DNA of 64,000 nt, from assembly GCA_030550235.1 (NCBI GenBank), contig JAUQPU010000001.1, positions 381,068-445,067 of the forward strand, given 5' to 3'. Position 1 is the first letter of the stretch. Every line of letters starts with the position of its first letter. Made by a program: the position numbers and the translations under genes. This document shows positions 26,423-56,910 of the stretch, piece by piece. The notes below the pieces were generated by a model that did no database searches, had not been told where the DNA came from, and was given only the letters and a program-made list of their open reading frames with translations. The DNA comes from Thermoproteota archaeon. GTDB lineage: Archaea > Thermoproteota > Nitrososphaeria_A > Caldarchaeales > Calditenuaceae.

Positions 26423-26559
26423 ACACCTTCTGCTACGCCCAGACATTTATAACAATGCACCTACCATATCATATTGTCAGTATTTTCTGGGTCATGGTTA
26501 ATGGAGGCTCCTAATGCTTTTCCATCTCGAACACCCAGATATGTGGTATTCACAATGTC

Positions 26560-26633
26560 TGGGCCCGGTGGGATTCGAACCCACGACCTACCGGTTATGA
26601 GCCGGCCGCTCCACCTGGCTGAGCTACGGGCCC
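26560..26633 (-). tRNA. tRNA-Met (anticodon CAU), elongator type
   Basis: Reverse complement folds as cloverleaf: acceptor GGGCCCG/CGGGCCC, D arm GCUC-AGCCAGGU-GAGC, anticodon arm GCCGG-CUCAUAA-CCGGU, T arm GUGGG-UUCGAAU-CCCAC; TATA-like box about 30 nt upstream on minus strand. Confidence 0.85.
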
Positions 26634-26746
26634 GACCTAATCGCCCCTTTTCAGCTATATTTTCTATCTGGGGGAAATTTAAGGTATCTCGTATGGTGGC
26701 GAGATAAAGCTTTAGTTGTGGACACATCTTTTGCAGGGGGGCGATT

Positions 26747-38396: not shown

Positions 38397-39106
38397 TAAC
38401 TGTTGAGGGTCTAGATGCAGGTTACGGCCGTCTCCAGATACTCTTTAATGTCTCTCTGAAGGCGCCGAGGGGTGAGATTACTGCCATACTAGGCCCCAAT
38501 GGCAGTGGAAAGAGCACCCTGCTTAAGAGCATATTTGGTCAGACCAGCATCTTTAAAGGCTCCATCAACCTGGATGGAGTTGAGCTGGCTGGGCGTCCCC
38601 CTCATAAGATTGCACGCCTAGGTGTAGCCTATCTACCCCAGCTCAACAACCTTTTCACGGGTCTCACTGTAAAGGAGAACCTGTTGATGAGTGGCTATAT
38701 GCTCTCAGAGGAAGAGAGAAGGGAGAGGTCGGAGGAAGTTCTGAGGTTCTTCCCCTTCCTCAGAGGCATGTTCAACAGGAAGGCCGCGACGCTAAGTGGT
38801 GGGGAGCGGCAGATGCTCTCGATAGGTATGGCATTGATGAGACGCCCACAAGTAATTATGCTGGATGAGCCTACAGCTAGTCTATCTCCGAAGATGGTCA
38901 ATATGGTGCTTGACGTTATAAAGAAGCTGAAGGACGACTATGGATTCACCATCCTCCTCGCTGAGCAGAGCGTTATTAAAGCCCTCAAGCTCTCAGACCA
39001 TGCAGCCCTGCTTGTTGGTGGAAGGGTCTTATTTGAGGGCGATCCATCCGAGCTACTAAATAATAGGGAGCTCGGCCGTATGTACTTGGGGCTGAGTGGC
39101 GCGTAA
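38393..39106 (+). CDS. livF: ABC transporter ATP-binding protein (LivF type)
   Basis: 237 aa; Walker A GPNGSGKST, signature LSGGE, Walker B IMLDEP; 4-nt overlap with livG. Confidence 0.85.
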   Translation: MITVEGLDAGYGRLQILFNVSLKAPRGEITAILGPNGSGKSTLLKSIFGQTSIFKGSINLDGVELAGRPPHKIARLGVAYLPQLNNLFTGLTVKENLLMSGYMLSEEERRERSEEVLRFFPFLRGMFNRKAATLSGGERQMLSIGMALMRRPQVIMLDEPTASLSPKMVNMVLDVIKKLKDDYGFTILLAEQSVIKALKLSDHAALLVGGRVLFEGDPSELLNNRELGRMYLGLSGA

Positions 39107-40116
39107 TGCCAATCCAGTATAGGCAGTTGGGGAGGAGCGGGCTAAAGATTTCCTGTCTAGTCATGGGGACGTGGTATCTTCCAACACTTCCAGAGGTGAA
39201 CTCCTATGGTGTCAGGAAGGTGAACGAAGAGGCGACGCTCAAGCTCTGGAGGATGGCAGTCGATATGGGAATAAACACTATAGACACGGCGAACCGTTAT
39301 CATGGAGCCATCGCCCCAGTGCCGGTGACGCACGTAGGCTATGCTGAAAGGCTTCTCGGCAGATTCCTCCAGACAGTTGATAGAGAGTCTCTAGTCATCG
39401 CTACTAAGGTTAGGTTCCCAATGGGGACTGGCCCAAACGACGAGGGCCTCTCGAGGAAGCATATAATGAGGGCGGTCCGAGATAGCCTCTCAAGGCTCCA
39501 GACAGGCTATATCGACCTCTACCAGGCGCATGGCTTCGACCCAACCACGCCGCTTGAAGAGACTATGAAGGCTTTTAACCAGCTTGTCGAGTCTGGGCTG
39601 GTCCACTATATTGGCTGCTCAAACTTCCAAGCTTGGCAGATATCAGAGGCCCTTGCCATCTCAGAGAGGCTTGGTCTAGCGAAGTTTGTGAGCGTCCAGC
39701 CGCTCTACAATCTACTCCAGCGCGACGCTGAGAGGGAGCTCTTCCCACTGGTTAGGCATGCGGGCCTCGGCGTAATATGCTACTCGCCCCTCGCCCAAGG
39801 TCTACTGGCTGGGCGCTATCTCAGAGGAGTTGGTCCAGACGTGAGAGCCTCCTATAGCCCCACAGTCAATCCCCTCCTTACCGAGAGAAACCTCAAGATA
39901 GTTAATGAGCTAGCGTTGATGGCTAAGGAGAAGGGCGTGACGCTGGCCCAGGTCAGCCTAGCTTGGCTCCTTCACCAGCCTGAGGTCACCGCTCCGATAA
40001 TCGGCTGCACTAGACCGGAGCAGCTTGAAGAGAATCTTCAGGCTGTGGATGTGAAGCTCTCCTCGGACGATATTAAAAGAATCGACGAGATTACTAGGCC
40101 GCAGGCTCCTGGATAA
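39106..40116 (+). CDS. Aldo/keto reductase
   Basis: 336 aa; AKR TIM-barrel motifs (GINTIDTANRY...; catalytic Y/K/H tetrad context). Confidence 0.85.
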   Translation: MPIQYRQLGRSGLKISCLVMGTWYLPTLPEVNSYGVRKVNEEATLKLWRMAVDMGINTIDTANRYHGAIAPVPVTHVGYAERLLGRFLQTVDRESLVIATKVRFPMGTGPNDEGLSRKHIMRAVRDSLSRLQTGYIDLYQAHGFDPTTPLEETMKAFNQLVESGLVHYIGCSNFQAWQISEALAISERLGLAKFVSVQPLYNLLQRDAERELFPLVRHAGLGVICYSPLAQGLLAGRYLRGVGPDVRASYSPTVNPLLTERNLKIVNELALMAKEKGVTLAQVSLAWLLHQPEVTAPIIGCTRPEQLEENLQAVDVKLSSDDIKRIDEITRPQAPG

Positions 40117-40128
40117 AAGCTGGAGAGG

Positions 40129-40884
40129 GTGACGTGTCTCTTGCGCGGCTCTCTATTCCACCCCGGCAAATCCTACGGTGTCCTTGAGAGGCTCTTCAAG
40201 GCTGGAGATTTCTCCCTATACTATTTCAGGGCTAAGAAGGGGGATGGGTTCACAGTAGACGCGGATGAGAATGAAAGGCTTGTCTTCTCAACTGATGGGG
40301 AAGTTGTAGTGAACGGCGAGACCCTCGGCGTAAAGGATATGATCTATGCTCCAAGGGGGGCTGGGCTGAGAGTTGTATCGATAAGCGAGTCGAGCATCTA
40401 TCTCGCCGAGGCTCGAGGATTTACAGAGCGGAGGCAGTTTGTGAAGAGGTTTAACGAGTCCGTCAAGGTCGAGTCTGGCCAAGACTGCTATGCACGGGTC
40501 ATCTTTCTGATGGTTAGTGAGAGTGACCATGTCGACCGATTTTTAGCTGGGTATACCGAGGGGGTGGGTGGGTCCTGGACTAGCTACCCTCCTCACAGGC
40601 ACGATGGGAAACCTGAAGCCTATATCTTCTACGGGATGGCTCCTGGCTTTGGTGTGCAGCTCCTAATGGATGATGAGGGTGAGGATGCCTATATAGTCAG
40701 GGATGGGGATGTAGTGCTGATCGAGAGAGGCTACCACCCCAATGTTGGCACATCCTTAAGCGGCATAAAATATGCATGGGTCATCGCGGCTCCACCCGGG
40801 AAGAGAGACCTATCGGTAGAGATTCACCCGCTCTTCAGCTCGGTCCCGCTAAGGACAACACATCTGAAAGTTAAAGAAGGATAG
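40129..40884 (+). CDS. KduI/IolB-family cupin (5-deoxy-glucuronate isomerase-like)
   Basis: 251 aa; bicupin with IolB-like motifs (SYPPHRHD...EAYIFYG). Confidence 0.65.
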   Translation: MTCLLRGSLFHPGKSYGVLERLFKAGDFSLYYFRAKKGDGFTVDADENERLVFSTDGEVVVNGETLGVKDMIYAPRGAGLRVVSISESSIYLAEARGFTERRQFVKRFNESVKVESGQDCYARVIFLMVSESDHVDRFLAGYTEGVGGSWTSYPPHRHDGKPEAYIFYGMAPGFGVQLLMDDEGEDAYIVRDGDVVLIERGYHPNVGTSLSGIKYAWVIAAPPGKRDLSVEIHPLFSSVPLRTTHLKVKEG

Positions 40885-42525: not shown

Positions 42526-42624
42526 GAGTGAGAATCCAAAACAGAGGCTGCTACTTAAAACTTTTCCTGCGGGCCCAACAAGTTTTAAAAACCTTCAATA
42601 CCCAAGTTCGGGGGTGTAGTTAGG

Positions 42625-43038
42625 TTGAAACTGTTCAGGAGGCGTAGGCCTCTGGGACCGACCATAAGCCTCGAAGAAGCGCTAAAGATGATTCCTGCTA
42701 GAAACCCAAACACCGAATCCTCCACCACCCCCTCAGGAGAGTTGAGTGTCAGGCTTAAAATGCCTCAGCCCCGCGGCCTCCTCCAGCGGCTTCTCCCCAT
42801 CCCCGAGTACCGTACTTTCATACTCGATAAGGTCGGAGGGGTTGTATGGGAGAACATAGATGGTGAGAGAAGTGTCAGAGATATTGTAGATCTGTTGGTT
42901 AAGAGTTTCAAGATGACGCGGGAGGAAGCGGAGATAAGCCTCGTCAACTATCTTCAGATGCTCTACAGCCGAGGCCTCATCTACGTGAAGGTGAGGAAGG
43001 ATAAGGAGGCGGGCCAACGCTTAAATCAATCTGGGTAG
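42625..43038 (+). CDS. PqqD-family protein (RiPP recognition element-type peptide chaperone fold)
   Basis: 137 aa; C-terminal region ILDKVGGVVWENIDGERSVRDIVDLLVKSFKMTREEAEISLVNYLQMLYSRGLI matches the PqqD consensus (LNeta..IWeLiDGkrtv.eIv.eL.eeydv..eea..Dv..Fl..L...gli). Confidence 0.65.
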   Translation: MKLFRRRRPLGPTISLEEALKMIPARNPNTESSTTPSGELSVRLKMPQPRGLLQRLLPIPEYRTFILDKVGGVVWENIDGERSVRDIVDLLVKSFKMTREEAEISLVNYLQMLYSRGLIYVKVRKDKEAGQRLNQSG

Positions 43039-43047
43039 ATGCGTTAA

Positions 43048-43650
43048 ATGATGAGTAGTGGAGAGAGAAAATACGGTCGTGTCTCTTTCCCCCTCAGCGA
43101 GTTATTTAGGCTTGTCACACTCAACATTAGAAAGAGGTTGGGTCGCTCACTTCTGACGACACTTTCCGTCCTTCTAGCGATCGCCTTTATGACGGTAATC
43201 TTCACGCTCAGCTCAGTAAATCGTGCAGCTACGGGGGCTGAATTCGCAGCATATCAATTCTGGCTAATCTTCGTCGCACTTCTTGTGGCTGGCCTTGGGA
43301 TATTCAACTCCCTGTTAATTTCGGTCGCTGAGCGTTACAGGGAGATAGCGACAATCAAGACGCTGGGGGCGGCAGACAGACACATACTACTCCTATACCT
43401 CATAGAGTCTCTTGTGATAGGAATCATTGGCGGCGCCCTCGGTGTAGTAATAGGCCTCGGAGTCAGCATAGGACTTCTAGCAGCCTACGGCAGGGCTGCG
43501 GATATCGGGCTAGTCCCCATCGTGGAGTACCTCTACATAATGGGTCAGGGACTACTATACGCAGCCATACTCTCGCTGGTCGCCACATCCTATCCCTCCT
43601 ACCACGCCTCAAAGATGAGCCCCGCGGAGGCATTCCGCGTCGAGATATGA
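43048..43650 (+). CDS. Minimal FtsX-like ABC permease (4 TM, no extracytoplasmic domain)
   Basis: 200 aa; TM1 followed after only about 20 residues by a canonical FtsX/MacB C-terminal 3-TM domain (RYREIATIKTLGA...); 10-nt gap to PqqD-like gene, ATGA overlap with downstream gene. Confidence 0.6.
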   Translation: MMSSGERKYGRVSFPLSELFRLVTLNIRKRLGRSLLTTLSVLLAIAFMTVIFTLSSVNRAATGAEFAAYQFWLIFVALLVAGLGIFNSLLISVAERYREIATIKTLGAADRHILLLYLIESLVIGIIGGALGVVIGLGVSIGLLAAYGRAADIGLVPIVEYLYIMGQGLLYAAILSLVATSYPSYHASKMSPAEAFRVEI

Positions 43651-44480
43651 GAATCTCCCTAGAGCGGCTAATATTCATGCGAAGGCCTGTAGGAGAGTTC
43701 CTCGAACACGCTTGGAGGGCAGGTGTTGATGGTGTAGAGTTTGCTGAGTTCGAGCTTCAGAGGCTGATACAAGAGGGGAGATACGACCATTCAAGCCTCT
43801 ACAAGGATGTGAAAAATAAGGGTCTAACAATATCGGGAATCTACTGGTCGGCCGAGTTTCACAAGAGCGAGGAACGTTCCAAGATACTATCCCAAGCGGC
43901 GGGGTTGGCGGAGGTTTATGGGAAGATTGAGTGCAGGAATGTTGTGATAGGGCCTCCGCGTGGGGGGCTGGGTGCAGGGCTCCCTCCTAGCCAGGTATAT
44001 AGGCTTCTCGACCAGCTCGTAGAGACTTTGAGGGAAGCCTTAAAAATATTCGTAGACAACGGCATAACTCCCTCGCTCCACAACCACTACGACACACTGA
44101 TCGAGACGGAGGCTGAGCTTGAGTACGTCTTATCTAGGATCGAGCCTGAGCTGCTGAAGTTTTGCCCCGACACGGCCCACCTGGCACTGGCCGGGATGGA
44201 CCCTGTGCAAATGATTAGAAGGCATCTAGACAGGATAGTCTATGCTCACCTTAAGGACCTCAAAAGCTTCCAAGCCGAAGGTAAGCGTGTAGAGAGGTGG
44301 TATGAGCTTACGACGGAGCTAGGCAGTGGCGTGATAGACTTCCCCATGATAGTTAGACTGCTGAGATCTACGGGTAGGGTGGAGTGGCTGGTCGTGGAGC
44401 AGGACTTCACAGAGAAAACCCCTGAGGAGAGTGTGAGGATGAGCCTCAACTACCTAGCCCCTCTGGTTCGGGGAGACTGA
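43647..44480 (+). CDS. Xylose isomerase-like TIM-barrel protein (sugar phosphate isomerase/epimerase, IolE/IolI-like)
   Basis: 277 aa; AP-endonuclease-2/xylose-isomerase TIM barrel pattern with conserved E/D/H metal ligands (HLKD, VVEQD). Confidence 0.7.
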   Translation: MRISLERLIFMRRPVGEFLEHAWRAGVDGVEFAEFELQRLIQEGRYDHSSLYKDVKNKGLTISGIYWSAEFHKSEERSKILSQAAGLAEVYGKIECRNVVIGPPRGGLGAGLPPSQVYRLLDQLVETLREALKIFVDNGITPSLHNHYDTLIETEAELEYVLSRIEPELLKFCPDTAHLALAGMDPVQMIRRHLDRIVYAHLKDLKSFQAEGKRVERWYELTTELGSGVIDFPMIVRLLRSTGRVEWLVVEQDFTEKTPEESVRMSLNYLAPLVRGD

Positions 44481-44520: not shown

Positions 44521-45495
44521 GTGCCACGAGCTGGTGTAAGATTCGGAATCTCCTTCCCCAACTTCTCGCTAGAATCTGCCGCCAAGATAGCGCGCGATGC
44601 TGAGAAGGCGGGGCTTGATAGCGTGTGGGTCAATGACGACATAGTTGGGGTCTTCCAGAAGGAGACCTTCGACGCCATTCTCTGTATGGCGGAGATGGCT
44701 AGGGCCACTCGTAGGATTAAGATCGGGAGTGCCGTCCTGGCAACATATAGGAGACACCCAGTCAATACTTCGATGTCGCTTGTATCCTTGGACCACATCT
44801 CCGGAGGAAGACTGATAGCTGGTCTAGGAAGCTGCTGCCCTAGCCCAGAGTGGGGATTTCCCCTATCAGGTGACGTGGCTGATAGATTCTTGGAATTCCT
44901 CAACGTCCTGAAGAGACTCCTAACCGGAGGAGCGGTGGAGTTTCAGGGCAGATTCTTCAGCCTAAAGAGCTCGGGCCTAACCGTTAGGCCTAGGCAGAGG
45001 CCCCACCCACCGATATGGGCCGCGGCAAATATAGATAGGACAATAAGGAAAATCGCACAAATAGCTGACGGATGGCTACCGATATGTGTCCCACCACAAA
45101 TCTACACCACGGAGCTTCAGACCCTGCGTGATTCTGCCAAAAGCACAGGGAGAAGGCCGAGGGAGATAGAAGCGGGCCTGATGGCCTTCATTCTGGTGGA
45201 GAAGACGAGGAGTATGGCTCTCAAGAGGGCGATGCCCCTACTTGCTCAAACTGCACTATGGTTTAACGCAGCTAGGATAAGAAAGATGGGCTTCGGGGCA
45301 GTGGGCTCTGTGAGCGATGTAACTCCAGAGATGGTTCAAGCTCTCAACATAGTAGGAACTGTCGAGGAGGCTGCTCAGAGGATAGGGGAGTATATCGATG
45401 CAGGGGCTAGGCACTTAGTCCTACAGCCCCTACCGGTTAAGGAGGCTCGGGAGGCTATTCCACGAATAGTAGATTCGATAAGACAGGCTGTATAG
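44521..45495 (+). CDS. LLM-class (luciferase-like) flavin/F420-dependent oxidoreductase
   Basis: 324 aa; GISFPNF...AGLDSVWVNDD luciferase-like monooxygenase family N-terminus. Confidence 0.8.
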   Translation: MPRAGVRFGISFPNFSLESAAKIARDAEKAGLDSVWVNDDIVGVFQKETFDAILCMAEMARATRRIKIGSAVLATYRRHPVNTSMSLVSLDHISGGRLIAGLGSCCPSPEWGFPLSGDVADRFLEFLNVLKRLLTGGAVEFQGRFFSLKSSGLTVRPRQRPHPPIWAAANIDRTIRKIAQIADGWLPICVPPQIYTTELQTLRDSAKSTGRRPREIEAGLMAFILVEKTRSMALKRAMPLLAQTALWFNAARIRKMGFGAVGSVSDVTPEMVQALNIVGTVEEAAQRIGEYIDAGARHLVLQPLPVKEAREAIPRIVDSIRQAV

Positions 45496-45496: not shown

Positions 45497-48400
45497 TTAG
45501 CGGAGCTGCTCCCACAGGCTAGTTGGCGTCGTCTCTAAAACTTCAGAATCCCTAATAATACATATTCTCTTGCTGAGTCGCTGGGCAGCGAGTAAGGCGA
45601 TGGAGGAAAGGTAACCATCGTCAGATGAGATGCAGATTAGGTCGCAGTCCTTTGCCGCCTCTATCACAGCCTTGGCATCCGAGACCATCGATCCAGAGCT
45701 AGGTATCCTCACCACGACCACCCTGACCAGGTTCGCCTCCAGCATCTCAACCTCTCTCTTCAAGTCATCCTCTGAGGCCCCTCGCCAAACAACCCTGACC
45801 TCGCTCGGATTATAGACAGTGAGGAGCGGCTGGATATGAGCCAGGTCTCGGGAGAAGGGGACGAGTATCCTGATGGTTAAGGATGTGTACTCTATTATGA
45901 ATTGGCGGATGAGCTGAACGATCTCTCTGACATACTGGTCGATGAACCTAGCATCCTGCGCCTCAATCTTCGACCGGAGTTTGACAAAACCCCATCCGTC
46001 CTGCTCATATACATCAAGTATGCATGAGGCCCTGAATGCTCTCTGCTCGGTAGATGAGTAGGTAAACCTGAGTCTATGCAGACCTGCCTCGGTATTTTCT
46101 TCAACACCATGAACCATAATATTCACGGTGGTGGTATAGCTATATTCGCTGAGCCTCGAGTTCATGTAGGTTATAAAGTGTTTAATCTTCGATACCTTAA
46201 GCTTGGCGGGTAGCTCGACTGTCCAATACCCCTCCTCATCTAAGGCCTTTGTCAGAACCCACTTCCATGTCTGCGCCGGCGTGGAGAGAATGATATTCCT
46301 TCGAACCGATAGTATGTGTGACGAAATGAAAATAACAGATGAGAGGGCGAAAACGCCCATGACGCTCTCCTGAGTTAGTTTGAAGTCAATTGGTATGGGG
46401 ATGATTTTAGGGACTATGCTGAAGACCCCAAGAGTCACCAGGACTCCAAGGTATGAGGAGATTACTCCTAGGAATATAGCTTCCGCGACGCTTAGCAGTA
46501 AGATATGGGCTGGATTAAGACCCAGCGTCGACATTGTCAAAAACTCTCCCCTCCTCTCATAGTAATTCGCCAGTGACGCCACCAAAAGATTTAGAAAGGC
46601 GATGCCTGCAACCACCATAACCTCTCCACCCGATATACTGGCAAGACTAACAAGATTGAAGACGTAAACCTCCCCTCCAGGCCTGATTAGTCTCACCTTC
46701 AGATTGGTGTGAAGACTCATCGTCTCGGCAATCCTATCGATTTCTTCCACACCTCCCCCCGAGGCGTATATCTTGGTTGGCAGCGCACCTAGCTTCAGAG
46801 CCCCGTCAAATCCAGTAATTATGACATTCGACCATCCTGCCGGTGCAACTGGAGACATGGGAGGCATGACTAGCGTCGATAGGAAGTAGCCATCAATATC
46901 CTTAAGATAGGTAGGACAGTCTGTACTTAGTATTCCGTCTATCTGCAGGATCACGCCGTTTACTCTTATCCAAGACCCCACTGTTAAGCCGAGGTTTGCC
47001 GCCAAGTCACTCGAGACGATGGATGCTGAAGGATCTTGTCCAATCCGATTTATCTCCCCCTCGATGATGCATTGTGAGAGCTGCTTCGGTAGGAGGGTGC
47101 TACCCGATACACCAATAACACCCCTCAAGTTATAACTCTTATCGTTGATTATGTATTCGCGGCCCGATGGTGGAAAGATAGGAGTCTCAGCTCGGAGGCC
47201 CAAATCCAGGCCCAAACTTCTGAAGAACTCTACATAGCGGGTATCCACAGGCGCGAGGTTATCGAATCTGTATCCCCTATCATATACTATGATGTATGGT
47301 GTCTCTACTGGGTTAACCTTCTCCGTAGGGTTGGAGATGAATACCTCGCTCTCGACGCCTATGTTGACCAGCAGTAGGGTAGCTGAGACGGTGATCGTGG
47401 CCATGGCAACCATCATCCAGGTTCTGAGGGGCCTAGTTTTTAGAAACCTCTTCGCAACACTGAACGCGAGGGAGGAGGCTGCGAGGAGTGCGACTCCGCG
47501 CTGTGTCTTGACCTCGAGGCCTAGGGCTGGGATGCTCCAGACAAGGCCAACTATTACGAGTATGCTGTAGAGGAGGGCGGACCATCCCCACGCATCGCTA
47601 GGCAGGATTGAAGGATGAGAAGCAGCAATAAGGCTGAAAGTAAAGATACTTAGCAAGGACAGGCCAGCAGCTATACTAGACTTCTTCTCACCTAAGACTA
47701 GGTGGCTCAGGGAGAGCGCCCCCAAAACTAGGAACAATGGAAGTAGAATCCCACCACCCCATCTCACACTATAATCGTTTAATGCAGAGTTGATTCCTAC
47801 AAGGTCGATGTAGGTTTTTCGGAGCAGTTGATACGCCTCACCCATGTTTCCCAGGAGATAATGCTCCCTCGAGGCTGCGAGACGCTCCTCAGCCTTTTTA
47901 AGCCTATCAAGCTGATAGCCAAGATAGATGCCAGACTGTGAAAGCCCTTGAAGCCTATAGCCGGTCACCTCGGTGAAATTCTGAACGGCGCCAAATGCTC
48001 TAGGGTAAATAGTGTGCAGCAGAGAGACGATTCGATTCTCGCCTATAAGGCCTGTAAGGTCTTCCATCCATCTAAGCCCTTCACCACCTACTACCGCAAA
48101 CTCTCCATAAAGCCTATAGTCAATAGACTGTGGGACCAGAATTTCGCCATCTCCAAGACCTATCAACCTCTTCAGCACATCAATACTATGGCTCCAGTGG
48201 ATCTCACTGGGATACCAAAGCCCTGCCCCCCACAGCTCAAGCCTATACCGGGCTGAGACGGGGCTGCCATCAATCCAGGGATACAGTCCAATAAACCTGA
48301 CAATGGATGCCCTTTGAAGAACTATCGCCGGCTCTGAATCTAAATAGGGAAGGAGTTTGAGGATAGATATATCGACCGGAAGATATGTCCTTCCATCCTC

Positions 48401-48670
48401 AACTAACGGGCCCACAAGGCGAGAGCCCAGAACTACCGATGCTTCTAAACGCCCATCCCTAGTTTCTAAAAGTACCCGCTCGCCTGAAGGCTCCAACAAA
48501 ATAAACTTCAGCCCGTCCTCCACCGGCATATAATCGTTATCTAATACAGTTATGACTATGGTGGTCGAGTTATCCCTAGCTGTATCCGTGTTTGCTGTAG
48601 CACATACTGTAAACAGCATAAAGATAACAGTCAGCGAGACAGGCGTCAAAGCTGCTAAACGGTAATCCAA
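45497..48670 (-). CDS. Giant FtsX-family permease with large extracytoplasmic domains and a C-terminal cytoplasmic USP-like (universal stress protein-type a/b) domain
   Basis: 1057 aa; signal/TM N-terminus, about 10 predicted TM helices, FtsX domain near residues 650-790, C-terminal about 250 aa soluble domain ending ...DLICISSDDGYLSSIALLAAQRLSKRICIIRD resembling the USP G-x2-G...S nucleotide-binding tail. Confidence 0.55.
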   Translation of the reverse strand: MDYRLAALTPVSLTVIFMLFTVCATANTDTARDNSTTIVITVLDNDYMPVEDGLKFILLEPSGERVLLETRDGRLEASVVLGSRLVGPLVEDGRTYLPVDISILKLLPYLDSEPAIVLQRASIVRFIGLYPWIDGSPVSARYRLELWGAGLWYPSEIHWSHSIDVLKRLIGLGDGEILVPQSIDYRLYGEFAVVGGEGLRWMEDLTGLIGENRIVSLLHTIYPRAFGAVQNFTEVTGYRLQGLSQSGIYLGYQLDRLKKAEERLAASREHYLLGNMGEAYQLLRKTYIDLVGINSALNDYSVRWGGGILLPLFLVLGALSLSHLVLGEKKSSIAAGLSLLSIFTFSLIAASHPSILPSDAWGWSALLYSILVIVGLVWSIPALGLEVKTQRGVALLAASSLAFSVAKRFLKTRPLRTWMMVAMATITVSATLLLVNIGVESEVFISNPTEKVNPVETPYIIVYDRGYRFDNLAPVDTRYVEFFRSLGLDLGLRAETPIFPPSGREYIINDKSYNLRGVIGVSGSTLLPKQLSQCIIEGEINRIGQDPSASIVSSDLAANLGLTVGSWIRVNGVILQIDGILSTDCPTYLKDIDGYFLSTLVMPPMSPVAPAGWSNVIITGFDGALKLGALPTKIYASGGGVEEIDRIAETMSLHTNLKVRLIRPGGEVYVFNLVSLASISGGEVMVVAGIAFLNLLVASLANYYERRGEFLTMSTLGLNPAHILLLSVAEAIFLGVISSYLGVLVTLGVFSIVPKIIPIPIDFKLTQESVMGVFALSSVIFISSHILSVRRNIILSTPAQTWKWVLTKALDEEGYWTVELPAKLKVSKIKHFITYMNSRLSEYSYTTTVNIMVHGVEENTEAGLHRLRFTYSSTEQRAFRASCILDVYEQDGWGFVKLRSKIEAQDARFIDQYVREIVQLIRQFIIEYTSLTIRILVPFSRDLAHIQPLLTVYNPSEVRVVWRGASEDDLKREVEMLEANLVRVVVVRIPSSGSMVSDAKAVIEAAKDCDLICISSDDGYLSSIALLAAQRLSKRICIIRDSEVLETTPTSLWEQLR

Positions 48671-48764: not shown

Positions 48765-50309
48765 ATGAAGCTTGATGCAATTAACATTTTATACATTCTT
48801 ACTTTGAGTGGTTTAATTTTAGCTGGTGCCACACTGCGCCTCTATAATTTGGATGCAGAGAGCGGATGGCACGATTATGATGAAGGAGTACACCTATCGG
48901 CGGCCTTGCTTCTATCCAGAGGCTACACACCGTATGTCGACTTCTTTTTCGCCCATCCTCCACTCTCCCTCCACATCCTAACATACACTGTGGGAGATGG
49001 TGGGAGTGAGGCGTATGCACGGTCAAGGTCTGTATCAGCGGTTCTAGGATCTTTAACTTTGATAGTTTTAGCGGCTGCTGCTCATCTCTCGGTTGGAAAG
49101 ATAACTGCGCTCGCGGGAACAGCTTTTCTAGCCCTTGATGGCTTCGTTTCATACAATTCGAGGATGGTCATGCTAGAGCCCTATACCGACTTCTTCCTCT
49201 CACTATCTGTCATATGCTACGTCTTGCTTAAAAGATGTAGAAATTCTAGGCAGGAGATTCTATCCTCGACTGGCTCTGGAGTTGCTTTAGGCCTGTCTGT
49301 CTCCTCGAAAATGACCGGGCTATTCGGAGCCGCTGCAATTATACTCCACGCACTGGTGTTCAAGAGGACTCGCGCTTCTTTATTCATAATTGCCTCAGCT
49401 GCCCTGACTTATCTCTTGATAAGCGCGAAATACATCTTTGCAGACCCTGACGCATATCTTAAACAGACAGTCCTCTTCCATATCGTCAGGCCGCAAGATG
49501 GTATACCTCAGTCTGAGAGGCTTCACTGGTTACTAACATCTATCTTGGATTTAGGGGTGATGTGGGCTGGTTTTCCAGCCCTTGCCGCCGCCCTACTCAT
49601 GGCTCCACATCTCTCCCGCTCAAAAGTAATCTCTCATGAATCCTACATATGGATAATGTGGAGTCTTTCATACTTGATAGCGTTCTCCATGACAAAAACC
49701 TTCTTTGGGCATTACGTCCAACATATTATAACCCCCCTCTCCTTCGTCCCTGGCATGGCATTGGAGTTCGGGTCAAAGTTTAGGCTTCCACCTTGGAGAG
49801 GATCTATAGTCCATGTATTCTCTACCAGAATCTTACCGGTCTGGATAATATTCATGGCTCTGACACAGGCCGGCATAATATCTGCGGTTAATCCACCCGC
49901 CACGAGAGATGACACGCCTGTAATGGTGTCCATGCGGCTCATAGATCTTGGAGCAGCCAGTTTCTCCATAATCGCTTTTGAGCCCATCTACACCTTTTTA
50001 TCAAAAACAACTCCCTCAAACAGAGTCATAGATTCCTATGGGTACATGATGTATGAGGGCATGGGGTTAGGGCGCTTCGGATTCCTAGAAGCGCTCATGA
50101 AATATTTCTCTGGTGAGCTCTATAGCTCTTGGCCAATATATGAGGAGAGAATACAGGAAAAAATGGTGAGGGATATTCTCGTCAGCGACTACGTCATAAT
50201 TGACTGGCGCGCGAGATGGCAGCTTACAAGACCCTCGCTCTATACAGTCTATCAACACATGACCTGCCTCAATAGAGTAAGGGATATTGAGATCTGTGGG
50301 GTCTCATAA
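48765..50309 (+). CDS. GT-C fold membrane glycosyltransferase (PMT/ArnT, GT39/GT83-like)
   Basis: 514 aa polytopic; first extracytoplasmic loop carries the DE motif (HDYDEGVH...YTPYVDFFFAHPPL) diagnostic of PMT/ArnT-family GT-C enzymes. Confidence 0.7.
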   Translation: MKLDAINILYILTLSGLILAGATLRLYNLDAESGWHDYDEGVHLSAALLLSRGYTPYVDFFFAHPPLSLHILTYTVGDGGSEAYARSRSVSAVLGSLTLIVLAAAAHLSVGKITALAGTAFLALDGFVSYNSRMVMLEPYTDFFLSLSVICYVLLKRCRNSRQEILSSTGSGVALGLSVSSKMTGLFGAAAIILHALVFKRTRASLFIIASAALTYLLISAKYIFADPDAYLKQTVLFHIVRPQDGIPQSERLHWLLTSILDLGVMWAGFPALAAALLMAPHLSRSKVISHESYIWIMWSLSYLIAFSMTKTFFGHYVQHIITPLSFVPGMALEFGSKFRLPPWRGSIVHVFSTRILPVWIIFMALTQAGIISAVNPPATRDDTPVMVSMRLIDLGAASFSIIAFEPIYTFLSKTTPSNRVIDSYGYMMYEGMGLGRFGFLEALMKYFSGELYSSWPIYEERIQEKMVRDILVSDYVIIDWRARWQLTRPSLYTVYQHMTCLNRVRDIEICGVS

Positions 50310-50939
50310 GTTAAGAGCCCTGGACTCGAGTTCTCGGGTAAATTCTATAAGTTCCCCGGCGAGAAAGTCAAGAAGCTCATATATCCTTTTAACGATTGGC
50401 CCAAACCTCCATTCAGAGCCAGGTCCCTTAATGGCTGTTATGAGCCATCCAATCATCTTAGGAGACTCGTAGTGTTTTCTGAGAGCATCGTCGGGCGAGC
50501 TCGCGCCGGTTAGGTCAAAGTAAGTGTTTACGTGCAGCTCATCGACGACGGAGCGCTTAAGCAGTCTTAAGAGTTGATTGTTTCTGTTTAGCCTTATCAT
50601 TAAATCATCTACGGGAGCCACATCTGGGAACACTTTGGATAAGAGCTCTGACGTTACCCACTCGTAAGAATACCTAAATATCCCCCGCCTCCTTATCTGG
50701 ACCTCTCTACGCTTCATCTCCCTATATAGCTGCCCTCCACTATCATCCACCACTTCGCGGATAATTAGAGGTGTTACAAAATGCCACTCCCAGTCGAAAG
50801 ATATCCCCACCAATCTTCGAGAAATCTTCAAGCTACGCAGCCTCGAGTCTTTGAGTAGAATCACCCATCCATCAAGGTCCCAAGAGGCACTATCCACATT
50901 TTTCCCGAGTGCTAGCTTGATAACCTCTAATTCGCTCAA
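50304..50939 (-). CDS. Hypothetical soluble protein co-transcribed downstream of polytopic membrane protein A
   Basis: 211 aa ORF, 45-nt gap after upstream gene on same strand; no recognisable family. Confidence 0.45.
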   Translation of the reverse strand: MSELEVIKLALGKNVDSASWDLDGWVILLKDSRLRSLKISRRLVGISFDWEWHFVTPLIIREVVDDSGGQLYREMKRREVQIRRRGIFRYSYEWVTSELLSKVFPDVAPVDDLMIRLNRNNQLLRLLKRSVVDELHVNTYFDLTGASSPDDALRKHYESPKMIGWLITAIKGPGSEWRFGPIVKRIYELLDFLAGELIEFTRELESRALNL

Positions 50940-50983: not shown

Positions 50984-53074
50984 TTAGGGTACGAACTGGG
51001 CCGAGAATCTCGGCAGCACTACTGCGAAGAACTCTATAAGCCCCGCCAGCAGTATTGGCGCGCCAAATCCTAGGGATATTCCGGCTGCGACAGGTATAAC
51101 ATACGACTCAAACCTCCTAATGCCTATGGTCCTAATCATTATCACCTTAATTATTAGTGCAACAAGCCCTGAAAGCCAGGTCCATATCAGGCCCACCGCC
51201 ATACTCATGGTCAGCGAGGTTGGATCTATGAAGAACCATGCAAACCTCGATCTCAGGAACCAGACTACGGCAACGATTATGATTCCAATCAAGCCGTAGG
51301 TGAGCCCTGGAGCCCAGTCAACCGCGCCGACTGGTACATACGAGGTGCCTCCAATGAAGTTGCTGAACTTCATGCCCGCAGTCCAAGACCATGCATTAGA
51401 GTTTGCAAGCCCACCTGCATGGTTCAGAAGCCAAATCCTCCAGATGTATCCGAAGACAACGCCAATCGCGATAATCGTGGCTGCTGATACAAGTGCGTCA
51501 CGGACGTTTGTGCCTGTATCTCTAGCGATCTTGTAGTAGGATACTGCTGCTCCAGGCCCGAAGCCATTAACCCTCAGCGTCCACGTGTTGTTGAAGGGAA
51601 TAGTTAGTATTCCTGTCGCGAAGAGCCCTGAGTTTGTTGTGCCCGTTGTCGGTACTGTACCTGGCCAGTAACCAAGGGCAACACCTAGCGGGAAGATATA
51701 TGTTCCAACCCCTCCATTGTTTGCGAAGTCGTCGACGTGCCACCACATGGTCGCAGTTACTCTGGCAAGCGCGCTCCAGTAGATATATGCGAAGACGACC
51801 ATTGCTAGGGAGATGATAAACGGCACACCAGAGGCAGTGAAGAGCGCTAGAATGGCTATCGTGACAATAAGTCCAAACCAAGCTATGGATCTCGTAGATA
51901 GTCCATATTCGTCTTCAGACTTTCCTGTCAGGGCCCTAGCAAGGTCAACAAATCTTGACCTCAGAGTTATCAGGGTAATTATACCCAGTCCCACCATCAT
52001 TCCTAGTATTCCAACGGTTCTGTAGGGGAATGGGAACCAGTTGGCGGGTATGTCCTCCCAATTCCATAGAAACTCCATTCCTGGGTTGTAGGGGAGTGAC
52101 CCAGTTATGACGCCGATCCACTGATAGAGTAGGCCGAAGACAACATACGCTAGTACGGCTGTTATGAGCAGATTGTTTGGGAGGAGTAGCCACAGGGCCA
52201 CTTGGTCGACTTGGAAGACACCCTTTGCCATTGCTCCTGGCATTATGGATGGAAGCCCAAAGATCAATATCGGCTGTTCTCCCCAAGCAAATGCCCCGAA
52301 TACTGCTAGTGGTGGCACGATCTCGCCGAAAACAGGAATAAGCGACGCTATCAGCCCGATGAAGAATGCGACCCAGAAGACCCTAAGGGTTGGCTCCTGT
52401 ATTCGGAACCATCGAGACTTGTTGGTGGTCGGGTCAATGTCGGAGGCATTTCTAACCATGTATACCATAGGGATTGAAAGAGGGAAGATTAGGCGCTCAA
52501 CATCTACCCATCTTCTCCCCCAAACGCCGAAGCCCAGGAAGAGAGCCAAGTAGTACATGAGGATGGTATAGAGTGACCAGTAGATTATTGGCGGTAGGAA
52601 CTCTCCCCAAAGGATTTGTTGCCCCGGTGTTAGCCCAGTCTGCCAGGCCGCAATCATTGTGGGGTCTTTCGGGAACATCCACGGCGGCGTCATCGCCCTC
52701 CAATAAGTCCCCGTAGTGGGGTCATTCATCCCCGCCCCAACCGATACAATCGTCTTCTCGATATAGCCAGAGAGAGCCTCACCACCGCTCAAGGCACCTT
52801 TAGGATAGTACTTTATACTATTCACAAGCGCAAGTGCCGGAAAGATACAAACAAGCTCCTGTGCGGTGAGCCTCAGCCTAGGGTTTGACCGGCCTATAAG
52901 CTCGTTCAGCAGCACGATGTAGATAAACGGAACCCAGAATGCATTGATAGTACCGGTCTTTGATGTGTATAGCCAAGTCATGTCGCCGATTGCTTGGGCG
53001 ACGATAACCAAGATTGCGCCGATCAATATTGACCTTGTGGTCAATCCCCTTATAGAGGCTATTTGTGTGCTCAT
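50984..53074 (-). CDS. Large polytopic membrane protein A (paralog of 53190-55097; possibly OPT-type transporter-like)
   Basis: 696 aa, about 16 predicted TM helices; N-terminal MST...(R/K)(L/K)TAQEL/PLRKQEL block and overall hydropathy shared with paralog B. Confidence 0.55.
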   Translation of the reverse strand: MSTQIASIRGLTTRSILIGAILVIVAQAIGDMTWLYTSKTGTINAFWVPFIYIVLLNELIGRSNPRLRLTAQELVCIFPALALVNSIKYYPKGALSGGEALSGYIEKTIVSVGAGMNDPTTGTYWRAMTPPWMFPKDPTMIAAWQTGLTPGQQILWGEFLPPIIYWSLYTILMYYLALFLGFGVWGRRWVDVERLIFPLSIPMVYMVRNASDIDPTTNKSRWFRIQEPTLRVFWVAFFIGLIASLIPVFGEIVPPLAVFGAFAWGEQPILIFGLPSIMPGAMAKGVFQVDQVALWLLLPNNLLITAVLAYVVFGLLYQWIGVITGSLPYNPGMEFLWNWEDIPANWFPFPYRTVGILGMMVGLGIITLITLRSRFVDLARALTGKSEDEYGLSTRSIAWFGLIVTIAILALFTASGVPFIISLAMVVFAYIYWSALARVTATMWWHVDDFANNGGVGTYIFPLGVALGYWPGTVPTTGTTNSGLFATGILTIPFNNTWTLRVNGFGPGAAVSYYKIARDTGTNVRDALVSAATIIAIGVVFGYIWRIWLLNHAGGLANSNAWSWTAGMKFSNFIGGTSYVPVGAVDWAPGLTYGLIGIIIVAVVWFLRSRFAWFFIDPTSLTMSMAVGLIWTWLSGLVALIIKVIMIRTIGIRRFESYVIPVAAGISLGFGAPILLAGLIEFFAVVLPRFSAQFVP

Positions 53075-53189: not shown

Positions 53190-55097
53190 ATGTCCACGGA
53201 GCTTGAGAAAACTTCACCGGTTGAATTACTTGAATATGGCATCTCGTGGAGGGTAATCCTAGCTATCTTGACTGCCGCTGTCCTTTTCATCCCCGTCTCA
53301 CTATACCTCAACCTCATATCAGGGGCCCTCTCGCCCGCGATAGCTGTCACGATAATCGCTATACTCTTCGCAGAGCTGACCAGGTTCTTCGGAGCTCCAC
53401 TAAGGAAACAGGAGCTGTTTGTAATATACAGTAGCGTTGCAGTTATGTCATCTACTCTACCACCCTATTACTGGCTAGTTTATAGAACATTTTATGTTAC
53501 GACGCCGATTACCCAATACTTCTTAATTGATGGAACGCCCATCAATCAACTAGTCCCTACGTGGTTGGCACCACCTGCCTTTTCACCAGTCTATCAGCTG
53601 AGAACGCTTCTCCACCCCGACTGGACTTACGCATTAATCGTGACCGGATTATCATTCGCACTGCTAGCTATGGCGGAGATAGGCTTAGCCATCATGTTCA
53701 CATACATATTTGTAAAAGAGGAGAAGCTGAATTATCCACTAGCGCATGTAGAAGCCTCCCTGATAAGCGTCCTTATAGAGAGGGAGGAACAGCACATGTC
53801 CATATACATTCTGGGCATAGTGACAGGTGTTGTCTACGCCTTCATGACTTATGCAGGCTTCCTACTCGGTGTGCCTCTTCTCCCGATACCCTGGTTCGAT
53901 TTTGTCTGGATCACCGAGAAATATATTCCAGGAGCCCTGGTTGGTGTGGCGACAGACCCATTCACACTTGGGCTCGGAATGGTTCTCCCAGTCAAGGTCG
54001 CAGTATCAACACTGATAGGATCTATAGCAATATGGATCATCGCTAACACTATCTTCACCTCATCCCCCAACTTCTTCCCCCTCTGGTTCTCAGAATACTA
54101 TAAAGGAATGACTATAGGCTCGATATATCAGCGGTCCTTCCAGAGAATCTGGATTAGTCCACAGTTCGGCTTCATAATCGGAATAGCAGTCGCCTTGATA
54201 CTAGCGTTTCGAAAGACAATTCTACGGAGTTTTAGACTATTTGCATCGGCAATCGTTAGGCCAAGGGAGACAGAGCTCCCATTAAGGTTCGCACTAACTC
54301 TATTCCTAGTTGCATCGATTGGTTCTGTAATTCTCTTCCTGATATTGGTACCTGGGTTTCCCGCTTGGATTGCACTGGTTACTTCTCTTGTTTTGAGCTT
54401 CTTCATAGCGATGGTCGCTGCAAGATCTCTCGGAGAAGTAGGATACTTTCCAGCAATTCCATGGCCCTGGCAAGTTATTGTCTATTTCACTCCATATAAT
54501 GGCTACGCTGGATGGGTTTATTCCCCCTACATAAACCTAGGATATACTGGCTACCTCTCACAACTTGGTAAGGTCAGCTACCTCACCTCAACGCGCCCAA
54601 CCCACTATTTCATAGGAGTCGCAGGTGCATTCGCATTAATCGGCATAATTGGATTAATATCAATGGACTTCTTCTGGAGGCTATCACCTATACCCTCAAA
54701 TGTCTACCCAATCACGATGATTTACTGGCCCATCTATGCGACTAACGATAGTCTATTCGCTACGCGCCAGATTGCCGTTATACCTGAACACATCGGCATA
54801 GGGGCTCTCTCGACTCTTGGAATAGTATCCTTGGAGGTCTTGTTCCGAAGGATTGGTCTGGCGTTCCCCACATTCCCAATAGTGCTGGGATTCTTCATAC
54901 TTCCTCCATACGCTATAACTATACTAATAGGTTCACTGCTGGCGAATATTATCATTTCCAAGACGTTCGGGAAGGAAAGGTGGGAGGCCATAAAAAACTT
55001 CTTCATAGCTGGCTTCTTCTCCGGTCTAGGTATCACGGTTGGTGTCGGAATATCGTTTACGCTGCTTTCAAAGGCGTCCTGGATCTGGCCTTGGTGA
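53190..55097 (+). CDS. Large polytopic membrane protein B (paralog of 50984-53074; FAELTRFF resembles the ELTxR N-terminal motif of OPT-family transporters, tentative)
   Basis: 635 aa, about 16 predicted TM helices; paralogy to protein A visible by eye. Confidence 0.55.
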   Translation: MSTELEKTSPVELLEYGISWRVILAILTAAVLFIPVSLYLNLISGALSPAIAVTIIAILFAELTRFFGAPLRKQELFVIYSSVAVMSSTLPPYYWLVYRTFYVTTPITQYFLIDGTPINQLVPTWLAPPAFSPVYQLRTLLHPDWTYALIVTGLSFALLAMAEIGLAIMFTYIFVKEEKLNYPLAHVEASLISVLIEREEQHMSIYILGIVTGVVYAFMTYAGFLLGVPLLPIPWFDFVWITEKYIPGALVGVATDPFTLGLGMVLPVKVAVSTLIGSIAIWIIANTIFTSSPNFFPLWFSEYYKGMTIGSIYQRSFQRIWISPQFGFIIGIAVALILAFRKTILRSFRLFASAIVRPRETELPLRFALTLFLVASIGSVILFLILVPGFPAWIALVTSLVLSFFIAMVAARSLGEVGYFPAIPWPWQVIVYFTPYNGYAGWVYSPYINLGYTGYLSQLGKVSYLTSTRPTHYFIGVAGAFALIGIIGLISMDFFWRLSPIPSNVYPITMIYWPIYATNDSLFATRQIAVIPEHIGIGALSTLGIVSLEVLFRRIGLAFPTFPIVLGFFILPPYAITILIGSLLANIIISKTFGKERWEAIKNFFIAGFFSGLGITVGVGISFTLLSKASWIWPW

Positions 55098-55135: not shown

Positions 55136-55933
55136 GTGAAGCTCTCATGCCAGGATAATCTTGTACCGGGCAGCACCTTGACTGAGAAGCTTGAGAACTT
55201 GGAGAAGCTGGGATTCAGCGGAATAGAGCTTTGGGGTAGGCCTCACCTGGGCGAGAATCTTAGAGAGGTGAAGGATACGCTGGCATCTTTTAAAGTGAGC
55301 CCATCGGTCATCTGCGCAGGGTACAGTGGAGACCTCCTCAGTCCTGAGCCTAAGGCAAGAGCTGAAGCAGTTCAGGGGATAGTTCAGAGGCTTGAATGGG
55401 CCAGCGAGATTGGGGCCGTAGGCGTCATATTCGTCCCAACATTTGGTGGAGCCAAACTTCCTGATCTATCACCGCTCTATCAAAACGTCATCGAACTTGA
55501 AAAAAGATTGCTGGTAGCTGAGTGTAAGACTCTGGCTAAGAAGGGGGAGGAGCTGGGTGTATGCGCCATATTAGAGCCGCTCAACAGATACGAGACACAT
55601 CTGATAAATACTCTCAAACAAGGATTAGAGATTATAAGGGAAGTAAACTATGAAGGTTTAAGGCTGATGGCCGATTTCTTTCACATGAACATAGAGGAGA
55701 GTAACATCGATGACGCTTTGTCAGAAGCGTCAGACTACTTGGTGCATGTGCACCTAGCCGACAGCAACAGATGCCTCCCAGGCTACGGGCACACTGATTT
55801 CACACCCATAAAGATACTTCTATCAAGAGGGTACAGCAAGTATTTCTCGCTGGAGTGCAGAATAATTGGCGACCCACTGGAGGAGCTGAGAAAATTTGTA
55901 AAATTTATTTCTAAATATGGTGATGTGAGATGA
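55136..55933 (+). CDS. Xylose isomerase-like TIM-barrel protein (sugar phosphate isomerase/epimerase, IolI/IolE-like)
   Basis: 265 aa; TIM-barrel AP-endo2 family motifs (ILEPLNRYE, HLAD, E/H metal ligands). Confidence 0.75.
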   Translation: MKLSCQDNLVPGSTLTEKLENLEKLGFSGIELWGRPHLGENLREVKDTLASFKVSPSVICAGYSGDLLSPEPKARAEAVQGIVQRLEWASEIGAVGVIFVPTFGGAKLPDLSPLYQNVIELEKRLLVAECKTLAKKGEELGVCAILEPLNRYETHLINTLKQGLEIIREVNYEGLRLMADFFHMNIEESNIDDALSEASDYLVHVHLADSNRCLPGYGHTDFTPIKILLSRGYSKYFSLECRIIGDPLEELRKFVKFISKYGDVR

Positions 55934-56910
55934 ATCCGATAGGTATAGTTTTAATTGGCTGTGGCGGCATAATGAATGTCCATGCAAAGAGTCTAATGAC
56001 GTTAAGGGATGGTGTCCGCGTTGTAGCTTGTGCTGACATTGTGAAGGAGAGGGCAGAAGAGTTTGCAAATAGGTTTGGATGCGCGGCCTATACGGATCCT
56101 GTGGAAGCTGTGTCCGAGACGCATCCTGACGTCGCAATAATAGCTGTCCCGCCAAATGCACATGGATTTGAGGAAGAGATAATCGAGCATGGAGTTCACC
56201 TCTTGATAGAAAAGCCTGTGGCAATAAATCTAGAAGTAGCCTCACGCATACTGCGTAAGATTGAGAAGGCCGGAGTTATCAATAGTGTAGGCTACATGTG
56301 GAGATATCTTGATGTTGTCCAGATAGCGAAGAAAGAGATCTCCAACCCCGCTGATATCGGGATGATTTATGGACAGTATGTTTGGGCAGCGAACTTTCCG
56401 CCTGGGCACTGGTGGTTGAGAAAATCCCAGAGCGGCGGGCAGATAGTCGAGCAAGTCACACATATGGTCGACCTAATAAGATACTTCGCGGGGGAGGCTT
56501 CTTCAGTCTATGCAAGGCTTGAAAAAAGGCTCTCGAAGGATGAGGCAATAGACGTTGAGGATTCCTCCGTAATCACTATCAGGCATAAAAGCGGCGTCAC
56601 ATCCACGATAGTGGCCACCTGGAAGAGTACAAACACAATGCAGGATACGTTCATACGGATATTTGCCAGAGACCTAGTGGCAGATATTGTTGGGCATCAG
56701 AGGAAAGCAACATTCTATAGGACCAATAAGGTTGAGGAACTGAGGAGTGCTGTTGACCCATATCTTGAGGAGCTACGGACATTTGTTGAGGCTGTACGAA
56801 CCGGAGATCAGTCTAGAATACTTTCACCCTATTCGGACGCATACAAGACCCTCGAGTTGACCATCAAGGCGAATGAATCTCACAAGTTGGCCAGGATAAT
56901 CGAGGTTTGA
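55930..56910 (+). CDS. Gfo/Idh/MocA-family NAD(P)-dependent oxidoreductase (IolG-like)
   Basis: 326 aa; N-terminal Rossmann GxGxxG (IGCGGIMN) and EKP motif (LLIEKPVA) diagnostic of the family; ATGA overlap with upstream TIM-barrel gene. Confidence 0.8.
   Translation: MNPIGIVLIGCGGIMNVHAKSLMTLRDGVRVVACADIVKERAEEFANRFGCAAYTDPVEAVSETHPDVAIIAVPPNAHGFEEEIIEHGVHLLIEKPVAINLEVASRILRKIEKAGVINSVGYMWRYLDVVQIAKKEISNPADIGMIYGQYVWAANFPPGHWWLRKSQSGGQIVEQVTHMVDLIRYFAGEASSVYARLEKRLSKDEAIDVEDSSVITIRHKSGVTSTIVATWKSTNTMQDTFIRIFARDLVADIVGHQRKATFYRTNKVEELRSAVDPYLEELRTFVEAVRTGDQSRILSPYSDAYKTLELTIKANESHKLARIIEV

Follow-up and report, generated by a model that had tools for sequence, protein, structure and literature searches.

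A PqqD-fold protein encoded next to an FtsX permease without an extracytoplasmic domain in Caldarchaeales and in diverse bacteria

Domains of the PqqD/RRE fold (RRE, RiPP recognition element) serve as class-independent beacons in the mining of gene clusters for peptides that are made on ribosomes and modified after translation (RiPPs). FtsX-domain permeases belong to the MacB, LolCDE, and FtsEX systems, in which the extracytoplasmic domain is the working part. Here we describe a gene for a PqqD/RRE-fold protein, termed P, and the gene that follows it, which encodes a small FtsX permease termed mini-FtsX. Both lie in a 64,000-nucleotide stretch, referred to as the window, of a Caldarchaeales genome (Thermoproteota archaeon of the family Calditenuaceae, "Aigarchaeota"; NCBI GenBank assembly GCA_030550235.1, contig JAUQPU010000001.1, positions 381,068 to 445,067 of the forward strand). 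Outside Bathyarchaeia and Thermoprotei, the balance of the evidence tips toward P being a conserved partner or accessory of a MacB-type (type VII) ATP-binding cassette (ABC) system and not a partner of RiPP enzymes. We know of no counterpart, in the characterized type VII ABC systems, of P or of U300, an unannotated protein of ~300 amino acids (aa) that is often encoded beside it.

An initial annotation, made from the DNA sequence alone, had proposed a PqqD-like C-terminal region in P, and this assignment proved genuine both by comparison with hidden Markov models (HMMs) and by structure prediction. P matched the Pfam PqqD model PF05402 at residues 63 to 119 (E = 9.8e-11; 42.3 bits; cut-off, 23.4). 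The AlphaFold2 model of P was built on a 45-sequence alignment and reached a pLDDT of 88 and a pTM of 0.75; a 7-sequence alignment (pLDDT 46.7) was set aside. The model contains strands at residues 30 to 34, 40 to 45, and 62 to 67 and helices at 69 to 76, 84 to 95, and 99 to 115, with extra strands at 22 to 26 and 119 to 123, and thus shows the three-stranded sheet followed by a winged-helix-like three-helix bundle that defines an RRE. When this model was compared with the PDB using Foldseek, the best matches were the leader-bound lasso B1 protein TbiB1 (5v1u; target-normalized TM score, 0.81), 6jx3, and the PqqD structure 5sxy, and the top matches ranged from 0.72 to 0.82 on the same score. 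Hydropathy analysis revealed neither a transmembrane (TM) segment nor a signal peptide in P. These data establish P as a genuine RRE/PqqD-fold protein.

A HMMER search with P recovered 832 relatives at the level of 50%-identity clusters, 97 of them at E ≤ 1e-10. Nearly all of the best 150 of these 832 were 110 to 220 aa long and aligned with the whole query, including its N-terminal 60 residues. Because these N-terminal residues are conserved across the family, P is a complete protein and no C-terminal remnant of a longer conventional one, a possibility that had been raised when the gene was first noticed. A P-x-RNP..W..G-x-V motif precedes the PqqD core in members of the subfamily, and a hydrophobic strand that follows the last helix is likewise conserved; database records give these proteins no name other than "PqqD family" or hypothetical. 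On P, every named NCBIfam PqqD model stayed below its cut-off, including the PqqD equivalog TIGR03859 (30.1 bits; cut-off, 46) and the lasso B1 family NF033536 (36.7 bits; cut-off, 80). P therefore belongs to a distinct, unnamed PqqD subfamily. A single sequence of 676 aa (P0172) combines an N-terminal P-type PqqD domain with one TM segment and a presumably extracytoplasmic region of ~550 residues; it would represent a form of P that is anchored in the membrane.

Since the fold of P is a three-helix, winged-helix-like one, P could also be a small transcription regulator of the downstream genes, its RRE fold being a variant of the winged helix-turn-helix (wHTH). The archaeal operon begins with P, which has a basic N terminus and gave a weak match to a regulatory wHTH protein of a Sulfolobus plasmid (E = 0.018, under the cut-off). 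However, the sequence and structure matches of P are specific to peptide-binding RREs and not to DNA-binding wHTH proteins, and no conserved operator-like repeat was found upstream of P. In bacteria, moreover, P is encoded in mid-operon and is translationally coupled, which is atypical for a regulator. A regulatory role of this kind is very improbable.

The second gene of the pair encodes a protein that matched Pfam FtsX (PF02687; E = 1.1e-17, residues 73 to 192). Hydropathy and PDB alignments gave a topology of a MacB-type N-terminal helix and four TM segments, and the PDB matches (MacB, LolC/E, LolF, YtrF, and 5xu1) cover the N-terminal helix with TM1 and then TM2 to TM4. Only ~12 residues (57 to 68) separate TM1 from TM2, demonstrating that the extracytoplasmic domain is truly missing, as had been suggested. 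Many of the permeases encoded next to P in bacteria are likewise without this domain (188 to 257 aa), and mini-FtsX is 31 to 37% identical over its full length to the bacterial mini-FtsX proteins whose genes follow P. The P and mini-FtsX genes share a reading frame and are separated by a short spacer, as the initial annotation had stated; its length is 9 nucleotides (nt) and not 10.

To determine whether the pairing of P with FtsX recurs, 80 species-level loci with members of the P subfamily were taken from reference genomes and their open reading frames (ORFs) were labeled with profile HMMs. The ORFs were called in a crude way, and long overlapping ORFs cost some loci their labels. A distant FtsX match at L010, a frameshift-ridden contig, was disregarded. 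An FtsX gene lay directly downstream of P on the same strand in 42/80 loci, comprising 26/29 from Armatimonadota, 3/4 from Planctomycetota, 2/2 from Hebobacteria, 1/1 from Lentisphaeria, 4/4 from Caldarchaeales, and 6/8 from unclassified bacteria. At 13 loci there is a 4-nt overlap between the two, and a gene for a MacB/LolD-type ATPase follows the pair in 38. FtsX-domain genes make up a small fraction of any genome, and the 42 direct adjacencies are therefore far above chance. The adjacency, whose conservation in related archaeal genomes had been suggested as a check, is thus conserved in Caldarchaeales and well beyond, in at least five phyla. A functional link of P with a MacB-type ABC system is well supported by these gene neighborhoods.

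We also considered whether the adjacency might be meaningless, arising from inherited synteny and chance while P serves an unrelated pathway elsewhere. The close Caldarchaeales relatives (52 to 99% identity) share the whole 20 kb around P, and conservation of the pair among them is for that reason uninformative; in Bathyarchaeia and Thermoprotei, P lies beside housekeeping genes. Against this explanation, at least five phyla whose gene orders otherwise differ have the pairing, together with gene overlap and an ATPase that is orthologous. In Caldarchaeales, P and mini-FtsX stay adjacent while the remaining genes of the bacterial operon are dispersed, which argues for selection on that pair. Chance adjacency is therefore largely excluded.

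In ~20 bacterial loci, P belongs to a same-strand operon whose genes encode, in order, a giant FtsX protein (1,000 to 1,600 aa), M660 (a membrane protein of ~660 aa), U300, P, the FtsX permease, and the ABC ATPase. At 12 loci (L034 to L036, L039, L043, L044, L046, L080, L081, L083, L086, and L088), a gene for a TatA/E-like protein of ~70 aa (…FG..E..IIVIIVVLFGARRLPELARSVGESLREFKKA…) lies inside the operon, either in the interval from M660 to U300 or immediately upstream of U300. The operon is present in metagenome-assembled genomes (MAGs) assigned to the cultivated Armatimonadota genera Chthonomonas and Fimbriimonas and was seen in MAGs only.

The window appears to carry a dispersed archaeal version of this set. 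The permease had been described as a minimal, FtsX-only component, and this holds for mini-FtsX itself. It is not really an orphan, however: a related ATPase is encoded 16 kb away, a giant protein 1.8 kb away, and an OPT-like protein elsewhere in the window, all three with counterparts in the bacterial operon. The ATPase is 62 to 70% identical (292 to 354 bits) to those encoded directly after P and FtsX in the 38 bacterial loci, compared with ~30 to 34% identity to Liv-type ATPases and 195 to 250 bits against the characterized MacB, LolD, and MJ0796. It is probably the cognate ATPase of the system, judging from the sequence identity. An identity of 62 to 70% is unusually high for a comparison between an archaeon and bacteria and may reflect horizontal transfer of the system. 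The neighbors of the ATPase gene on its two sides are a gene for diphthamide synthase and an ORF of 452 aa that has no annotation.

The giant protein of the window clusters with giants of 711 to 1,591 aa that are encoded ~3 to 4 kb upstream of P in 22 loci. It consists of a signal or TM segment, an extracytoplasmic domain, a TM block, a MacB_PCD-like domain, the FtsX TM segments, and a cytoplasmic C-terminal region of ~260 aa. All 14 giants scanned contain an FtsX domain, Peptidase_M28 was found in 6/14 and MacB_PCD in 5/14, and one MacB-type module was detectable per protein. Caldarchaeales giants are ~100 residues longer at the C terminus than bacterial ones, with a Rossmann-like alternation of strands and helices, and this extension may be the CARF_m8 domain proper. 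The CARF_m8 CARF-LolE-TM models PDLC01991 and PDLC01990 reportedly go back to a census of CARF proteins (Makarova et al. 2020).

These features raise the alternative of a signal-controlled envelope or defense machine, in which the giant would sense a cytoplasmic nucleotide, the ATPase would power some activity outside the cytoplasm through mechanotransmission of the kind seen in FtsEX and LolCDE, and P and U300 would be regulatory inputs and not cargo handlers. The giant matched the PADLOC model PDLC01991 (CARF_m8--CARF_LolE_TM) over essentially the full model (E = 2.6e-209; residues 239 to 1057, model positions 10 to 810 of 810), its bacterial relatives carry the MacB_PCD and M28 extracytoplasmic domains, and one FtsX module per giant together with a second FtsX protein that has no extracytoplasmic domain and one ATPase fits a LolC/LolE-like heterodimer. 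The CARF assignment, however, depends on the model name only. PDB sequence relatives were found for the FtsX module of the giant and none for its C-terminal region, which has an alternating beta/alpha pattern. The window contains no CRISPR array and no cas genes, and P, M660, U211 (an unannotated protein of the window), and U300 had no PADLOC match, the giant being the exception. Short four-gene operons, furthermore, have no giant within 8 kb. We consider a machine of this kind quite unlikely.

The M660 protein of the window was recovered by the ortholog HMM (E = 6e-198; the cluster spans 21 loci) and matched Pfam OPT weakly over most of its length (29.2 bits; cut-off, 25.8). An OPT domain was found neither in the 11 bacterial orthologs of M660 that were scanned nor in the adjacent DUF6785 protein, and a sequence search found no PDB relative of M660. 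The DUF6785 and M660 genes form a divergent pair whose products are 19% identical in alignment and may be distant paralogs; whether the DUF6785 protein belongs to the system is uncertain. U211, which had no match in Pfam or NCBIfam, is conserved in Caldarchaeales, and its gene adjoins those of U300 and P in two Bathyarchaeia loci (L022 and L023), the second of which holds another P paralog. The idea that U211 is a divergent U300 was rejected (hhalign probability, 0.2%).

U300 is the commonest neighbor of P, being encoded at 48/80 loci, 8/22 Bathyarchaeia loci among them. It has conserved Cys and His residues and conserved Trp positions, and no relative of it was found in Pfam, NCBIfam, PADLOC, or the PDB. 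A cryptic RiPP-like pathway can be drawn from these facts. In such a pathway, P would be the RRE of U300, a new enzyme that modifies peptides in an RRE-dependent manner, the FtsX/ABC proteins would be an exporter or immunity pump, the M28 domain of the giant would be an extracytoplasmic leader peptidase, and the precursor gene would be unrecognized or elsewhere. The architecture of the operon resembles that of a RiPP gene cluster, M28 occurs in 6 of the 14 giants, M660 is OPT-like, and a single ORF (P0155) fuses U300 with P. That several components are peptide-related (RRE, M28, and OPT-like) is a theme and not proof.

Searches for RiPP machinery gave no support to such a pathway. Among the ~30 window proteins compared with Pfam, none was of the radical SAM, YcaO, or lasso type, in agreement with the initial annotation, and none was a PQQ protein; the annotated syntenic loci had no such genes either. 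With known enzymes, therefore, P does not stand in a RiPP context, which is defined by a precursor together with an RRE-dependent enzyme. The scan for short conserved peptide ORFs that had been recommended was run on the intergenic regions around the genes from P to the LLM oxidoreductase gene and found none; an ORF of 31 aa at 42528 to 42623 is not conserved. When small ORFs were clustered across loci, the gene for the TatA-like protein formed the sole real cluster, and the other clusters were antisense or alternate-frame shadows of conserved genes. In addition, no catalytic fold or motif was identified in U300, and the window and the other Caldarchaeales loci lack U300 and a detectable M28 yet retain P and mini-FtsX. 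The fused ORF P0155 is a singleton on one short contig of 4 kb and is weak evidence of a link between U300 and P. A cryptic RiPP pathway is thus, in our estimate, unlikely.

The reading that we prefer, P as a partner of the ABC system, can be given a mechanistic form. P would be a soluble cytoplasmic accessory subunit of the ABC machine, its peptide-binding RRE edge would hold either a peptide that is cargo or part of a partner protein, which in most lineages would be U300, and P with the held peptide would load or regulate the machine. The mini-FtsX permease may pair with the single FtsX module of the giant in the manner of LolC and LolE, the two being served by one ATPase dimer; however, no giant is encoded near the short four-gene operons. 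In its widest form, the proposal makes the RRE protein an integral cytoplasmic subunit of an unrecognized bacterial and archaeal membrane machine composed of the FtsX protein lacking its extracytoplasmic domain, the LolD-type ATPase, the CARF_m8/LolE giant, the OPT-like protein, and usually the ~300-aa partner, a possibility that we put forward tentatively. As a matter of genomic association (42/80 loci), the data are best read as the initial annotation had suggested, namely as the PqqD fold put to a new use alongside a transporter of the FtsX class; the adaptor role proposed there, or the export module named as its alternative, may underlie the association. What the data show is the fold, the subfamily, and the gene linkage across phyla. 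Contact between the proteins, binding of a peptide, and the direction and kind of any transport are inferred from these, and the cognate status of the ATPase from sequence identity.

Several observations weigh against this proposal. A profile hmmsearch of the six-frame translation of the window returned nothing for U300 at E ≤ 10, and because of this absence the archaeal system may work differently; U300 is missing from four other Caldarchaeales loci, too. P has no FtsX or ABC neighbor in any of the loci from Bathyarchaeia (0/22), Thermoprotei (0/4), or Zipacnadia (0/2), so that, in genomic terms at least, members of the family can occur without the transporter. Around these FtsX-less genes, the neighbors are heterogeneous housekeeping genes with no RiPP enzymes. 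The 80 loci were fetched by one peptide pattern and are rich in Armatimonadota, and their counts come from a sample that is biased and whose members are not phylogenetically independent. Substrates of classical MacB-type transporters are not taken from the cytoplasm, and a simple hand-off of cargo for export therefore fits poorly. Physical contact between P and the transporter is proposed from gene order. Finally, an ORF of 378 aa at locus L082 that joins P with mini-FtsX was rejected as a Rosetta-stone fusion, since it is a homopolymer indel artifact of a long-read MAG. An independent short-read protein (P0212) is identical to it through residue 170 and then reads KRARRR and a stop, the frame expected from exactly one extra base in the GGACCCCAAG homopolymer run. 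With this base, the FtsX gene of L082 starts at an ATG ~50 nt upstream of the P stop. The indel in CCCC (L082:8453-8462; OY969427.1) thus fuses two genes artificially, and it shows that care is needed when domain fusions are inferred from assemblies of this kind.

The features of the window are listed in Table 1. The ORF positions first reported for the four genes from P to the LLM oxidoreductase gene were confirmed, as was the ATGA overlap of the mini-FtsX stop with the start of the TIM barrel gene (43647 to 43650); the 40-nt spacer ahead of the LLM gene is T-rich. A divergent TrpB-like gene begins 99 nt upstream of P. When the intergenic regions of five Caldarchaeales were aligned, the sole conserved blocks were two TATA-like boxes, CTTAAAAC at 42554 to 42561 and TTTTAAAAA at 42583 to 42591, the second lying ~35 nt upstream of the TTG start of P. 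These boxes would form part of a divergent promoter region.

Table 1. Genes and sequence features discussed in the text, with positions in the window
Feature	Position	Strand	Description
PqqD/RRE-fold protein gene (P)	42625-43038	+	137 aa, TTG start
mini-FtsX gene	43048-43650	+	200 aa; MacB-type four-TM permease without extracytoplasmic domain
Xylose-isomerase-like TIM barrel, weakly IolE-like	43647-44480	+	277 aa; Pfam and NCBIfam
F420-type LLM oxidoreductase (luciferase-like)	44521-45495	+	324 aa; Pfam and NCBIfam
Giant FtsX-domain membrane protein	45497-48670	-	1057 aa; CARF_m8 CARF-LolE-TM family (PADLOC), Pfam FtsX
U211, unannotated protein	50304-50939	-	211 aa; clusters with genes of L022 and L023
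DUF6785/DUF6784 polytopic membrane protein	50984-53074	-	696 aa; Pfam
M660, OPT-like polytopic membrane protein	53190-55097	+	635 aa; HMM ortholog of bacterial ~660-aa operon gene
MacB/LolD-type ABC ATPase	59925-60677	-	Pfam ABC_tran; no permease adjoining
Candidate divergent promoter region, two A/T-rich TATA-like boxes	42554-42591	+	Alignment of five Caldarchaeales intergenic regions

The TIM barrel and the LLM oxidoreductase had been placed in the same module as P, which was not borne out. The assignments of the two proteins are clear (AP_endonuc_2, E = 3.4e-24; Bac_luciferase, E = 1.3e-53), and their clusters are confined to Caldarchaeales loci. As a wider partner of P, the TIM barrel was rejected, since its HMM matched nothing downstream of P elsewhere. 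The two genes are lineage-specific operon passengers or neighbors.

Other genes give the neighborhood a sugar-type character. After M660, the same strand encodes another TIM barrel of the xylose-isomerase-like type and an oxidoreductase of the Gfo/Idh/MocA family (55136 to 56910, + strand), and an AKR gene (39106 to 40116) and a KduI/IolB gene (40129 to 40884) add a sugar/inositol flavor. Gfo/Idh/MocA genes also occur within 1 to 8 kb of P in 11 other loci (for example, L064 and L073), lying directly after the ATPase gene in L052 and L090; as a partner of P this family is unconvincing, given that distance and orientation vary. Between the M660 block and the ATPase lie a gene for an FG-GAP/ASPIC-UnbV repeat protein (554 aa; 56907 to 58571, + strand) and then the 452-aa ORF (58546 to 59904). 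The sole Rfam match in the window is a tRNA at 26560 to 26633 (- strand), and an ORF of 77 aa that overlaps it (26474 to 26707, + strand) is spurious.

The gene combination appears to be undescribed. A literature search found no paper that joins PqqD with FtsX or CARF with FtsX or that treats DUF6785. In the same search, the CARF_m8 family was unlinked to PqqD, to FtsX proteins without an extracytoplasmic domain, or to the ATPase, the source census (Makarova et al. 2020), which may list parts of the operon, being outside its scope.

The subfamily could represent a genuinely new job for the PqqD/RRE fold. If so, it would be the first case of a RiPP leader-recognition fold that loads or gates an ABC transporter outside natural-product biosynthesis, possibly in a new pathway of peptide secretion or of signal-controlled envelope remodeling. 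For RiPP mining, a large subfamily (hundreds of 50%-identity clusters) that is partnered with ABC components would be a systematic source of false positives. A MacB-type permease without an extracytoplasmic domain challenges the mechanotransmission picture, and its defined cytoplasmic partners make the question testable. The finding also puts the otherwise orphan CARF_m8-LolE giants and the OPT-like family in a common genomic context.

Compared with PqqD and the lasso B1 proteins (5v1u, 6jx3, 5sxy, and 3g2b), P is of the same Pfam family and fold and is likewise small, soluble, and stand-alone. It differs in the addition of ~45 N-terminal residues, with the P-x-RNP..W motif, and of a C-terminal strand, and its gene has ABC components nearby in place of a precursor, a radical SAM enzyme, a B2 protease, a lasso cyclase, or pqqABCE. 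The likeness to the CARF_m8 CARF-LolE-TM systems concerns the neighboring giant and not the P, FtsX, and TIM barrel genes. With respect to the OPT family (PF03169), M660 of the window is just over the gathering score and is a divergent family at best. The resemblance to MacB, LolCDE, and FtsEX lies in mini-FtsX, which shares with them the FtsX domain, the MacB-like N-terminal helix, and the four TM segments, and in the ATPase of the window, whose closest relatives among the characterized ones are MJ0796, MacB, and LolD. However, the permease adjacent to P has a loop of ~12 residues where the known members have ~200, and the second FtsX protein of the P system is 1,000 to 1,600 aa long with extra domains. 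In its overall composition, the bacterial P operon is like LolC/LolE/LolD, with two FtsX-type genes and one ATPase gene.

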